A DNA stretch of 64,000 nt from Chlamydiales bacterium (GCA_030681135.1 JAUXXF010000016.1:129402-193401), one strand, 5' to 3'. Shown: positions 25,267 to 31,683, counted from the stretch's first letter. Program-made: numbers and translations. The notes: generated by a model from the sequence alone, not told the origin.

Positions 25267-27861
25267 TTAGAAGTAAAAAGAGAGGTGTCCAACTCCCTTT
25301 GTAGGTCCTTGATTTTGCGAAGACTGAGAGGCTGCGGCTTTTTGACTTTTTGTTGCCGGAACTTCTTCTGCTTCTACTGTTTTTCCACCCCAGCTAAAAA
25401 AGCTTTTTATGGACGATGCGGAGCTTGAGACGGCCCCTGTTATAGCAGCTCCTGCTTTATTTGCGGCTGTGCTTGCTGCGGCATACGCTGTACCTGCTGC
25501 TTCCTTTGTGGTTGAGAAAGTGCTTGCTGCGATATCAGCTGTAGCTTCGTACATACCCATGGGGATATCACGTACATCAGAGATAGTTCCTTTAAGGGCT
25601 GTTAGGTTGTTTTTTGAGTAGTCTACAACAAATGATGTAGATGCTTTAAAGGCTTTAACCCCTGCAGTTTTTGCATCTGATAAAGTGATGCCTTTATATT
25701 TGCAACCCACAATTCCTACGGCCGAGACTAGTACTGCCGTTGCCATCATCGGGTTGTCAAGGATAGGATCGATGATCGCAGAAGTTAGTTTTGTAATAGA
25801 AACTTCTGGTAGTGGGCTATGGGCTTGCAGATAGCCTAGCCCCTTTAGGGTTTCTTCAAAAGCAGAACCTGCTCGCTCATTGATTTGAGCTGTAATGCGG
25901 GTAGCTCCTGTAAGTAAGGTCCCGATAGTGTCCTCTGATGGCATAACACCTTCAACCAGAGTGTAGAAGCCATCTGTAATATGCGGGGTTCTTGCTAGAT
26001 CACCAAAAGCTATTGTATTGCTGCTACTGATGACACTTTCTTCTAAGAGACAAATAGGATGCTCTAATGAGGAAACATTTTTAATCACCTCAGCAGTTGT
26101 GTTAGTGCCTACACTTACGCTTGTAAACATAGTATTTGTTAGGCGAGCATTTCTAATCAGCTTAGCAGTTACGTCAAAGCCTTTGCCTAAGCCTGCAAGA
26201 ATAGCATCTTTTGGGAAGGCAGTTTTAACCGCTTTTCCTAAATCGATAATGGTTGAACCATCAACAAGTCCGTTGGAGTAAGCCAAGGCTCCTGCTGTTC
26301 CAAGTAAAGTCGGTATAGCTGCTATTTCTGCTCCACTCCGAATAGCTTCAGGAAGGCTTCGAGAGACATCTTGATTTGAAGGAAGCAATAGACTTGTATT
26401 TCTTATATAAGTCATCGCGTCTTGCTTACCATAGCTTAAACGGGAGAAATTTCTGCTGATGCGATCTTTGAGGGTTGTTTTCTCGTTGAGATCAATGATT
26501 CCGAGTGCTCCAGACATATCTGATGAGTTATGGAGTTCATCGGATAGGGGGGAAGTGATTTCTATAGTAGCTTTCTTTTCTATCGCGTAGGCAATGACTT
26601 GCTGTTGAAAAGAGACTAATCGATCGAACAGTGTTTTTCTTTCTTCAGCATCTTCTACATCTTGAGGCAATTGATGATAGAGTTCACAAACCTTGTTAGA
26701 GAGGTCGACATAGTATTCAATATCGCCGCTTAGCAAATTTTTTGTAACAGAGTTTTTTGGGCCTTTTAGTTTTGAGTCTTGGAAAAACTCTTCTTCTTCT
26801 CCCAAAGCATCAAGGTAAGTAGATGCTTCCAGGATAATTCGCTCTTCCAGACTATCTGGGTACATGAGATCCTGGATGGCTTCTACGGAGTTCTCATCTG
26901 CAGCGCGTGCAATGATTTCCTCATGAAAATGTTTTAATTTCTCGAGCAGAGATGTATGAGCTGCATCTACTTTTTCATGACTATCGAGCCGCTTGTAGAG
27001 TTCAACGGCTTCGTTGAATTGTTCGATACATTCGTGGAGAGATAGAGAGGAATTCAGGTTGTTTTCTTCCAAGGCATTGAGCAATTCTTCTTTTGTTTGA
27101 AGCTTGTCGATGAGTTTTTTCGCAAATTTTTGAGCATCTTCTATGGATAAGGTGCTTTTTTCATTTCTATAGAGCAAAACAAAATCTAGTATTTCTTGCT
27201 CTGCATTGTTAAATTCCTCTTGATATTCTCTCAGGTTATTTACAAGAGTAGAGATTTTTTCGATTGTTGGAGATTCTTGGTTATCAAGGATTTGAGACTT
27301 GTTTCCTTGGATGCCAGGCTCTCGGAATTCAGGAATTTCTCTGCTAGAAGTTTGCGAAATGATCACAAGCGGTTTATTCAACAGTTTCGCTTTGCCGACT
27401 ACCATCTGTTTGAATGCATCAATAGTAGCTTTTTTGGTGTTACTTAGCGTGACTTCGTTTTTTTCATCTAAGTCAGCAAGAGTTGTCTTATTTCGGTAGA
27501 TACTCAACAAGTCATTGAGTAGATTCTGCGTATCTTTCCATGGATACAAATCTAATCTGTTAGGATGTTTTATGAAATATTTTGCGTCGTTGATTCGCGC
27601 TTGTTCCTCTTTGGAAAAGAGAGAGGAGCTGCTCACTGGTGTGCTATGAGGAGAAACGTTTTTCGTTTCTGTATAGAAAGAGAAAGACGAATTTACACTG
27701 GATGTTTGTGTGTTTGAGTCTAGTGCCTGGTCATTCATTTCTGGTGTAGAAATCTGATTAGCGGAATGAAAGTCATGATCATTTGAGAGAAGAGTTTCTC
27801 TCACTTCGGTGCGTGTCAAACCTGTTGTATCATTTGATGATTTGGAGATCGATAAACCCAT
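25267..27861 (-). CDS. Large protein of unknown function: S/T-rich N-terminus, coiled-coil middle, G/A/S/T-rich hydrophobic C-terminal half. Paralog of 28423-31683
   Basis: 864-aa ORF. Blocks shared with the neighbour include LFSKEEQ..I..A.YF.KHP.RL, LLSIYRNK, PLVI..QT...EIPEFR, SPLSDELHNS and a C-terminal IKSFFSWGGK..VEA. Confidence 0.8.
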   Translation of the reverse strand: MGLSISKSSNDTTGLTRTEVRETLLSNDHDFHSANQISTPEMNDQALDSNTQTSSVNSSFSFYTETKNVSPHSTPVSSSSLFSKEEQARINDAKYFIKHPNRLDLYPWKDTQNLLNDLLSIYRNKTTLADLDEKNEVTLSNTKKATIDAFKQMVVGKAKLLNKPLVIISQTSSREIPEFREPGIQGNKSQILDNQESPTIEKISTLVNNLREYQEEFNNAEQEILDFVLLYRNEKSTLSIEDAQKFAKKLIDKLQTKEELLNALEENNLNSSLSLHECIEQFNEAVELYKRLDSHEKVDAAHTSLLEKLKHFHEEIIARAADENSVEAIQDLMYPDSLEERIILEASTYLDALGEEEEFFQDSKLKGPKNSVTKNLLSGDIEYYVDLSNKVCELYHQLPQDVEDAEERKTLFDRLVSFQQQVIAYAIEKKATIEITSPLSDELHNSSDMSGALGIIDLNEKTTLKDRISRNFSRLSYGKQDAMTYIRNTSLLLPSNQDVSRSLPEAIRSGAEIAAIPTLLGTAGALAYSNGLVDGSTIIDLGKAVKTAFPKDAILAGLGKGFDVTAKLIRNARLTNTMFTSVSVGTNTTAEVIKNVSSLEHPICLLEESVISSSNTIAFGDLARTPHITDGFYTLVEGVMPSEDTIGTLLTGATRITAQINERAGSAFEETLKGLGYLQAHSPLPEVSITKLTSAIIDPILDNPMMATAVLVSAVGIVGCKYKGITLSDAKTAGVKAFKASTSFVVDYSKNNLTALKGTISDVRDIPMGMYEATADIAASTFSTTKEAAGTAYAAASTAANKAGAAITGAVSSSASSIKSFFSWGGKTVEAEEVPATKSQKAAASQSSQNQGPTKGVGHLSFYF

Positions 27862-27916
27862 ATGTTTTTCCTTGTTTAAACTTAAGTTTTTCTGTGAGTA
27901 GATTCTATTTATTATT

Positions 27917-31400: not shown

Positions 31401-31683
31401 GTGGTTTAGAAGAGGCCTGTAGTAGTTTCCTAAAGTAAGAAAAATAAGGTTCTGGGGCTGGTGTTGGTTTGTTAGGAGTTGAAGTTGGTGTTGGTTTGTT
31501 AGGAGTTGAAGGTTGAGGTGAGCTTCTTACATATCCTAGACCTGAGCCATCATCACTATTATCATCCAAGTAGACGAAACCATCTGGTAGGGCGTTGTCA
31601 TTAATTCCCGCAGGATCCTCTTGCTCGTCGATCTCATTTAGATTTGTAACAGTAACTTTTGAATTTGGTCTGGAAACGTGCAT
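28423..31683 (-). CDS. Large protein of unknown function, paralog of 25267-27861
   Basis: The 1086-aa ORF has a P/S/T-rich N-terminus with STPNKPTP repeats and coiled-coil-like Q/E/K-rich segments. It also has long G/A/S/T-rich hydrophobic stretches and a C-terminal threefold GSTAYNVGATVVSGTASGA repeat. Confidence 0.8.
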   Translation of the reverse strand: MHVSRPNSKVTVTNLNEIDEQEDPAGINDNALPDGFVYLDDNSDDGSGLGYVRSSPQPSTPNKPTPTSTPNKPTPAPEPYFSYFRKLLQASSKPQAPTPLNAQVPTPPPSTPASASVASSSTSEPAPSTKPTKATSSEPISSATNSALFSKEEQDQIDLANYFSKHPERLFSESSQNTQDLLNGLLSIYRNKITTCDLDKEKTKNALKSFEDTIEKFETVVTQQAKLLNRPLVIVRQTPNKEIPEFRKTSPQSQQPQIIYREKAPTIKQVSEDADNLRQHQQQLTNVKRESTAALVEFRRMINLNPEKLEAAEQKLTDILERKTQIEKEAKKDILNPSLSLSQCIEQFNKIVQLYQEIPENQRILKDVPTPFSRLKDRLIKFEEQIVNRAAKENKVEELNRLRSLANKEDRIFLEASNEFEALGPEERLFWESKLEELKKQPHGFFYNRKAKNEIKTIEDLLSAEESLLTANDLKYYETLCNNISRLYRQLPSDAQRTEKGEKLFNRLVSFQQQVIERALKENATIEILSPLSDELHNSPEGNIRILLNEEIPLKDRIISFISPYSRKEISNISYVTQDLVASGINTAGFGIRFGWQTTKNLAVASAPWTGAYAMQYINDHLIQQGPFDEAGMVEGLLNCPPNVITALIAFSALALTYNNAPKLPEGTLSSLSHTGPLAIKTAIKTAGFLLAGGVAASTAGVIDGPAIARAVGSTAIGVGGSVLKTGLGVIPVPNLSNISEMYSGSNIEALAHGIYDNGVAIGIGSSAALTAAFLIRSLLALNHSKSNSIPTVQGEEKPNEANKVGAKEAEKEEEGTNPAPSADGPSLDQVPSTNGTPPLATTSSKTRQVANVAFPLMIGLAVALGSNEHTLETGLNETLPGLAANPESVQVLTTGLSDMVKQLLPTPAVLEGVTREAFTIISDHFTEDASDIISTVSNNQMIVAAILATVIGVETCRRNGITLSSVGSSAKVAAGTAYNVGATVVSGTASGAAAIGSTAYNVGATVVSGTASGATAIGSTAYNVGATVVSGATSTIKSLFSWSKKPVEAAKVDQEKTESQKKQRSSSPQNTTKNRGRSKAPINKR
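28585..28765. repeat. 66-bp tandem repeat, about 2.7 copies, inside the 3' end of the 1086-aa gene
   Basis: Units start at 28585, 28651 and 28717 (ggtgcctgagacaacggtagcgccaacgttatacgctgtgcttcctatggctgctgctccggacgc). Confidence 0.85.
31458..31511. repeat. 27-bp tandem duplication in the 5' part of the 1086-aa gene
   Basis: ttggtgttggtttgttaggagttgaag occurs twice and encodes STPNKPTPT / STPNKPTPA. Confidence 0.8.

Follow-up and report, generated by a model that had tools for sequence, protein, structure and literature searches.

Tandem paralogs confined to one chlamydial clade as candidate, fast-evolving substrates of type III secretion

Within a 64,000-nt stretch of a Chlamydiales metagenome-assembled genome (MAG; GCA_030681135.1, JAUXXF010000016.1:129402-193401), here called the window, two adjacent genes encode large paralogous proteins of 864 and 1086 aa (P864 and P1086). 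The reading that is tentatively favored, at somewhat less than an even chance, is that both are clade-restricted, fast-evolving and host-directed substrates of type III secretion (T3S), and that P1086 is possibly membrane associated. It is preferred because the proteins lack a Sec signal and combine a disordered N-terminus rich in Ser/Thr with a helical scaffold of the protein-binding type and with helices whose hydrophobicity is intermediate, and because the family is restricted to one clade, extremely divergent and variable in copy and module number. Such a combination would be expected of host-directed secreted proteins in a phylum that is obligately intracellular and whose members all have a T3S system. 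The confidence given to it is no higher because secretion is inferred, no chaperone or T3S system (T3SS) gene is adjacent, and the rate data fit relaxed constraint equally well.

The coding sequences of P864 (25267..27861; MDP1608668.1, Q8L98_05085) and P1086 (28423..31683; MDP1608669.1, Q8L98_05090; exact match to P0001) and all their parts described below are located on the minus strand. In the database, both are annotated as hypothetical proteins of "MAG: Chlamydiales bacterium". Their relationship is far beyond chance, with 41% identity over 456 aa in the N-domain (BLASTP, E=3e-92) and 34% over 170 aa in the C-terminal tail (E=4e-15). No further paralog was found in the window. An earlier description, made from the DNA alone (the sequence-only reading), had proposed these tandem paralogs, and both open reading frames (ORFs) were recovered exactly. 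The motifs which it quoted occur in both proteins, that is, LFSKEEQ (aa 81-87 in P864 and 148-154 in P1086), LLSIYRNK, SPLSDELHNS (aa 437-446 and 530-539) and the tail IKS[FL]FSW..K.VEA (aa 818-824 and 1037-1043). The proposed modular plan also agrees with the composition, which passes from an S/T/P-rich N-terminus through an E/K/Q-rich middle to a G/A/S/T-rich C-terminal half (G+A+S+T fraction 0.37-0.52 in the C-domains and 0.12-0.28 in the helical domains). On the other hand, "giant" overstates proteins which at 864 and 1086 aa are only large, and the basic end applies to P1086 (11 K/R in the last 40 aa) but not to P864, which ends in ...GVGHLSFYF.

The N-termini are disordered and S/T/P-rich, as had been suggested, according to both their composition and the AlphaFold2 (AF2) model. 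In P1086, this region covers aa 1-147 (31243..31683) and is delimited by composition, and in P864 aa 1-80 (27622..27861), where the AF2 predicted local distance difference test (pLDDT) is below 50 for residues 1-81. The two regions cannot be aligned with each other. The one of P1086 includes a perfect 27-nt x2 tandem repeat (31459-31511), coding part of a repeated S/T/P-rich STPNKPTP segment. The S+T+P+N fraction of the first 30 aa is 0.37-0.47 (0.40 in P864), and the first acidic residue appears at position 11 in P864, 17 in P1086 and 18 in Q1256, a distant homolog from the MAG BP7.bin23. Inspection of the N-terminal sequences revealed neither the hydrophobic h-region of a Sec signal nor a lipobox. 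Such Ser/Thr-rich, acid-free N-termini are compatible with a putative T3S signal, but they are non-specific.

Another possibility is that the paralogs are surface-exposed or envelope proteins, adhesin-like or antigenically variable, which use an unrecognized export route and evolve under immune or host pressure. Fast evolution, intragenic repeats that differ from those of the orthologs in a close strain, a G/A/S/T/V-rich C-domain and the P864 end ...LSFYF, resembling an outer-membrane beta-signal, speak for it. This explanation is nevertheless improbable, considering that the Sec signal peptide and lipobox are missing, no autotransporter or adhesin Pfam domain is matched, only 4-5 Cys are present, unlike chlamydial outer-membrane-complex proteins, and the model is helical and not beta. 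Like the Pmp proteins, the paralogs are large, tandem and rapidly evolving chlamydial proteins, but P864 and P1086 lack the signal peptide, the GGA[ILV]/FxxN repeats and the autotransporter beta-domain and are predicted to be helical. Pmp membership was rejected on the absence of a signal peptide, a GGA[ILV] count of 0 (FxxN 0-3, and 0-1 in the window proteins) and the lack of a Pfam autotransporter match. Eukaryotic N-myristoylation of P864 (MGLSISK, 27841-27861) was also rejected, as Gly2 is Ser in the ortholog. The myristoylation-like start and the beta-signal-like ...HLSFYF end (25270-25290) are both probably due to chance, since Gly2 is replaced and no Sec signal exists.

The helical N-domain, about 370-390 aa long, follows in both proteins. 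In P1086 (aa 148-539, 30067..31242), it opens with the head LFSKEEQ...LLSIYRNK...PLVIV, continues with two hairpin units and ends in TIEI-SPLSDELHNS. The respective domain of P864 (aa 81-446, 26524..27621) was modeled by AF2 (pLDDT 64, pTM, the predicted template-modeling score, 0.48) as all-helical with two short strands, PLVII and TIEIT. The two hairpin units of about 60 aa, CIEQFN..LY...F.EEI..RA and YY..N...LY...RLVSFQQQVI, are homologous to each other (hhalign unit 1 vs 2, 98% probability, E=6e-14). The Foldseek search of this model against PDB gave no match at E<=0.001; the best ones were designed helical repeats, 14-3-3 and BamD (E>=0.5, TM<=0.21). Matches to the tetratricopeptide repeat (TPR) in the homologs are sub-threshold only, and the fold comparison rests on a model of pLDDT 64.

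The C-domain is small-residue-rich and about 420-550 aa long, occupying aa 540-1086 of P1086 (28426..30066) and aa 447-864 of P864 (25270..26523), the latter without the first hydrophobic lobe of P1086. In P1086, a helix-loop-helix at aa ~641-703 (nt 29575-29763) is kept between distant homologs. Its helices lie at aa ~641-658 and 686-703, separated by a loop of 26-27 aa which contains K and E, and an equivalent pair is found in Q1256. Further downstream, the P1086 motif NxMI...C[KR]xxGITLS (GITLS at 28789-28803) precedes a 66-nt x2.6 repeat (28588-28757) coding the 22-aa unit GTASGAAAIGSTAYNVGATVVS, and IKSLFSW (28555-28575) is followed by a K/R-rich tail. In P864, GITLS is at 25678-25692 and IKSFFSW at 25390-25410. 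The segment NPMI...C[KR]YxGITLSD is common to the proteins of the window clade, and the counterpart of IKSxFSW in Q1256, recognized by inspection of the sequence, reads FTW.

Hydrophobicity was calculated as simple-sum deltaG on the Hessa biological scale in 12-, 17- and 19-aa windows, with other proteins of the same DNA stretch as controls. Integral membrane controls gave -3.1 to -3.8, -2.6 to -3.2 and -0.6 to -2.8 for the three sizes, respectively, and soluble controls +2.0 to +3.1, +3.0 to +6.3 and +5.4 to +6.7. The best segments of P1086 (-1.7, +0.7 and +2.6) and Q1256 (-0.6, -1.8 and +2.8), as well as those of the P1086 ortholog, are intermediate between the two sets. P864 (0.0, +2.7 and +6.1) and its ortholog, which have no first lobe, score like soluble proteins. 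The "hydrophobic stretches" of the sequence-only reading are thus present but marginal, intermediate in P1086 and near-soluble in P864. Secreted transmembrane substrates of the T3SS are reported to occupy an "intermediate hydrophobicity niche" (PMC6110835), and the deltaG of P1086, its ortholog and Q1256 agrees with it. Two candidate roles for the C-domain were rejected. An amphipathic 11-mer lipid-binding repeat does not fit the 22-aa unit, which has no charged residues, and the helical hydrophobic moments of the C-domain are unremarkable. A glycine-zipper channel does not fit either, as small-xxx-small patterns are only ~1.1-2 standard deviations above shuffles in the window-clade proteins, with none in Q1256.

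Inclusion membrane (Inc) proteins combine an N-terminal T3S signal with a bilobal domain, that is, two transmembrane helices less than 30 aa apart; the known loops have 3-22 aa (mean 8) and no charged residues, and the proteins range from 61 to 1537 aa (PMC3048545). The paralogs fall within this length range and resemble Inc proteins in being phylum-specific, poorly conserved and free of enzymatic motifs and Sec signals, with a putative N-terminal T3S signal. P1086 and Q1256 also have two hydrophobic helices with a loop below 30 aa, and their helical regions could face the cytosol. However, their loop of 26-27 aa is charged (K, E) and the helices do not attain the strength of true transmembrane segments, P864 has no first lobe, and the hydrophobic region of the family is a small-residue-rich domain of 400-550 aa in place of the compact Inc unit of 40-60 aa.

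The order of the elements also recalls the pore-forming T3SS translocators (SctE/SctB analogs such as CopB/CopD, YopB/YopD and IpaB/IpaC). A disordered N-terminus is followed by a helical region, two weakly hydrophobic helices with a loop and a C-terminal amphipathic or aromatic motif, and the hydrophobicity lies within the range of secreted substrates (PMC6110835). A translocator-like role is very unlikely all the same. Real translocators are part of the conserved core of the system; this family is limited to one clade, evolves very fast, is twice the size and misses the hydrophobic pair in P864. Membership was rejected, given that no Pfam or NCBIfam translocator family was matched at E<=1, that sequence match and operon are lacking, and that no class II TPR chaperone or T3SS operon lies in the vicinity.

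TarP, one of the early chlamydial effectors with variable repeats, provides another point of comparison, sharing with the family a large size, an acidic character, a disordered N-terminal region, short tandem repeats, a repeat or module number that varies by lineage and the lack of a Sec signal. The family differs from it in having no Pfam or NCBIfam similarity; the actin-binding and tyrosine-repeat motifs were covered by family scans only. Phage tape-measure proteins were rejected, with no PHROG match at E<=0.05 and a housekeeping gene context. Overall, the resemblance to chlamydial T3S substrates is one of architecture only.

P864, P1086 and two homologs gave no Pfam or NCBIfam match, with only noise at E<=1, and PDB sequence searches also returned noise only. 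The reliable one among the homology searches, in which an HMMER profile was compared exhaustively with 1.84 billion representative proteins, returned only three proteins, all of this family: P1086 itself, an 824-aa ortholog of P864 and the distant P0007 (E=4e-8). The family is thus restricted to this lineage (the window MAG, a close strain and BP7.bin23), a point which the sequence-only reading had proposed to check, and a homolog with a known housekeeping function, which would have spoken against an effector role, was not found. Word-indexed searches with P1086, the N-domain alignment and the BP7.bin23 protein gave nothing beyond the queries. These are weak negatives because the P1086 search missed even the 41%-identical paralog and the N-domain search its own query proteins; low-complexity words probably swamped them. 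A pattern scan of genome contigs and a scan of JGI metagenomes for the family gave no match. By sequence comparison, these proteins belong to no described family, and among Chlamydiae a single small clade has them.

In the close strain (Logan contigs L002 and L003), both paralogs are present and are followed by the same 235-aa neighbor. P0007 derives from a related MAG, on an ENA contig (L005) identical to the GTDB representative BP7.bin23 (L006). Synteny there is perfect (SucDC - FtsY - small membrane protein - DUF2147 - family gene - 260 aa - 275 aa - PriA), with a single family gene of 1256 aa, Q1256 (L005 9389..13159). Q1256 consists of a poly-Ser disordered N-terminus, two helical modules (aa 189-437 and 490-823), a hydrophobic C-domain and a K/R-rich tail. 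The public gene call of P0007 (1052 aa) is too short, as the ORF runs 204 codons further upstream and includes the poly-Ser stretch and the first head motif. A spurious 105-aa antisense ORF (L005 9631..9948) was called in a low-complexity stretch of the same gene.

The neighbors of the paralogs in the window are PriA, two conserved hypothetical proteins, DUF2147, the small membrane protein, FtsY and SucCD, and the window also codes for a TLC ATP/ADP transporter and other genes in keeping with Chlamydiae. The flanking trio 237aa-309aa-PriA is kept in 12 chlamydial MAG loci (L006-L017). No family member was found in these loci other than that of BP7.bin23, and a large upstream ORF is absent except in L006, one locus (L012) having no upstream flank. 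The trio genes (21391..24970) overlap or abut, the first two have no Pfam domain, and together with the primosome helicase they probably make up a conserved operon of unknown function. The 237-aa gene was rejected as a dedicated chaperone, as it is conserved together with PriA in 10 further chlamydial MAG loci that gave no homolog of the family.

Divergence of the family contrasts with that of its neighbors. Between the window and BP7.bin23, PriA, SucC, FtsY and DUF2147 are 74-83% identical and the family proteins only 23-25%. In the one pairwise comparison available (window vs L002, with one comparator gene), dN/dS (the ratio of nonsynonymous to synonymous substitution rates) is 0.52 for P864 and 0.72 for P1086 vs 0.11 for the adjacent 237-aa gene. 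Along P864, it is 0.14-0.30 in the N-domain (0.14-0.23 over aa 201-500) and ~1 or higher in 100-codon blocks of the C-domain; along P1086, it is 0.5-1.0. The 66-nt repeat of P1086 is found in the region least conserved with the ortholog (45% identity, with gaps), and the intragenic repeats differ between the window genes and those of L002. The synonymous rate (dS) against the close strain is 0.14 and 0.25 in the two large genes vs 0.47 in the 237-aa gene, and goes down to 0.04-0.10 in the P864 C-domain. These low values could reflect recent exchange of segments between strains, or noise.

The rates are relevant to two further explanations. The first is that the paralogs are retained in the bacterium as a cytoplasmic or peripheral inner-membrane scaffold, for example in the organization of the cell or of a developmental form, and are never secreted. 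The housekeeping neighborhood, the position conserved across three genomes, the lack of an adjoining chaperone, the purifying selection on the P864 N-domain and hydrophobic segments too weak to insert autonomously all agree with it. We consider it unlikely, as an identity of 23-25% would be unexpected while the neighbors hold 74-83%, as would the absence from other Chlamydiae with the same flanking genes, and the gene or module copy number varies between close lineages. The second explanation, scarcely probable, is that of decaying or functionless ORFs, a lineage-specific duplication drifting toward pseudogenes. It draws on the high dN/dS of the P864 C-domain and of P1086 and on the lack of known domains. 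Against it, the reading frames are long and uninterrupted in two or three independent genomes, the promoter, Shine-Dalgarno sequence and terminator are conserved, purifying selection acts clearly on the P864 N-domain, and motifs are kept across homologs of ~25% identity.

Each paralog is located in a transcription unit of its own, and the units were duplicated together with their signals. The upstream regions of P864 and P1086 show 84% mean column identity, and that of P864 is near-identical to the region upstream of its L002 ortholog. A 28-nt box, TTTATTTGATTAG[CT]AAAATAA[TC]CGAATA, occurs at two window sites only (27913-27940 and 31734-31761; 0 expected by chance), in agreement with the shared box of the sequence-only reading. 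The predicted promoters are sigma-70-type, with the -35 inside the box, an 18-nt spacer and then the -10. In P1086 (promoter and 5' untranslated region (UTR), 31684..31795), these are TTAGTA (31747-31752) and TATAAT (31723-31728), and in P864 (27862..27974) TTAGCA (27926-27931) and TAGAAT (27902-27907). Both have the Shine-Dalgarno sequence AAGGA and an estimated 5' UTR of 35-40 nt with an identical AAGGAAAAACATATG at its end; the P1086 start codon is fixed by this shared sequence. For this reason, the proposed leader of ~100 nt is indeed duplicated, but it consists mostly of promoter, as the box holds the -35 and is followed by the spacer and the -10.

The duplicated terminator hairpins were also recovered, the same GC-rich hairpin GCACCTGG...CCAGGTGC with a T-run being placed 3' of both stop codons. 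The intrinsic terminator of P1086 (28361..28393) is CGCACCTGG-loop-CCAGGTGCG with T8, followed by the duplicated AGACCTTCCCAT, and that of P864 (25189..25221) is GCACCTGGCA-loop-TGCCAGGTGC with a T-run. In both units, [AG]ACCTTCCCAT comes after the hairpin and T-run. Since the upstream regions, the hairpins and the post-terminator stretch all match, the duplication spanned from the promoter to just beyond the terminator. No Rfam element was found in the leaders or terminators.

Several of these results weigh against type III secretion of the paralogs. No T3S chaperone or T3SS apparatus gene is found in their neighborhood. By the bilobal standard of Inc proteins, P1086 is at best borderline and P864 falls outside. 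All segments of the family are less hydrophobic than those of real membrane proteins, and P864 resembles a soluble protein. The C-domain has an AF2 pLDDT of 20-35, which leaves its fold unpredicted, and the full-length AF2 model (pLDDT 38) is too poor for use. Finally, the rate comparison has a narrow base, and relaxed constraint fits the high dN/dS and the divergence equally well. As for the candidate secreted or membrane-inserting effectors that had been proposed, they are refuted by none of the results and agree with several indirect observations; the term "membrane-inserting" has to be dropped for P864, because no segment of it exceeds the soluble controls in hydrophobicity.

If the paralogs are T3S substrates, each gene would be transcribed separately, from a promoter of the sigma-66/70 type to an intrinsic terminator. 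The chlamydial T3SS would export the protein, recognizing its disordered, Ser/Thr-rich and acid-free N-terminus in the absence of a Sec signal, and the helical-hairpin (TPR-like) N-domain would serve as a protein-binding scaffold. In P1086 and Q1256, the C-domain may anchor the protein to the host or inclusion membrane through the helix-loop-helix, the aromatic IKSxFSW and the polybasic tail. The loss of the basic tail and of the first hydrophobic lobe would make P864 a variant that is soluble or only bound peripherally. Diversification may have proceeded by duplication, of the whole transcription unit in the window lineage and of the helical module within one gene in BP7.bin23, with the short intragenic repeats that differ between strains as a further source. 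A conserved T3SS is found across the whole of Chlamydiae; the effectors, Inc proteins among them, are specific to lineages and show little conservation (PMC3048545). A fuller version, which is possible and doubtful, sees here an undescribed modular type III effector family of one environmental chlamydial clade, a TPR-like scaffold sent to the host or inclusion membrane, with a polybasic tail that is possibly like a nuclear localization signal, diversifying under host pressure. That the host is an amoeba would be a guess.

The intergenic regions also contain an element resembling a miniature inverted-repeat transposable element (MITE). Copy 1 (25025..25190; 166 nt, palindromic) is placed directly after the P864 terminator, outside the duplication, and copy 2 (28024..28189), 95% identical and inverted, separates the P1086 terminator from the P864 promoter. 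P1086 and P864 also have a solo terminal repeat (28256-28281) between them. The element has perfect 27-nt terminal inverted repeats, TTTATACCGAAACAACCTGAAGAATCG, folds as a single hairpin (-96.5 kcal/mol, z=-14) and matched no Rfam family. The insertion of copy 1 is recent, as the same site is empty in L002 (5950-5990). Diverged copies (72-79% identity) were located in the window at 23953-24077, 227-350 and ~39893-39954 and in another chlamydial MAG (L010 1973-2136). The copy at 23953-24077 is in frame within the conserved 309-aa gene (23373..24302), in a segment that differs from the 275-aa homolog, and translates to ...KPTQPKTDSSGCFGI vs KPQQTKIDSSESFGI in the protein. The element breaks assemblies, as Logan contigs L001-L004 end within copies.

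Elsewhere in the window, a gene for a 1840-aa RHS-repeat protein (1859..7381) is followed by the stretch of lowest GC content (8000-10000, GC 0.33), an arrangement typical of RHS toxin tips and their immunity or orphan modules. A low-GC island (38000-44000, 0.35-0.38) codes for two GT25 glycosyltransferases and an FkbM methyltransferase, with a GH130 phosphorylase just upstream, and may be an acquired cluster for lipooligosaccharide or glycan modification.

Were the paralogs not secreted, they would be plain orphan proteins that evolve fast, of a kind frequent in chlamydial MAGs. In practice, the family can serve as a marker of this uncultured clade and is a candidate to be taken into heterologous secretion assays. 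If the paralogs are secreted, the effectors of environmental Chlamydiae would gain a new sequence family. The paralogs would then offer a compact case of repertoire evolution as well, in which one module was amplified by tandem duplication of the unit in one lineage vs internal duplication in its sister, and one paralog was stripped of its membrane-targeting parts.

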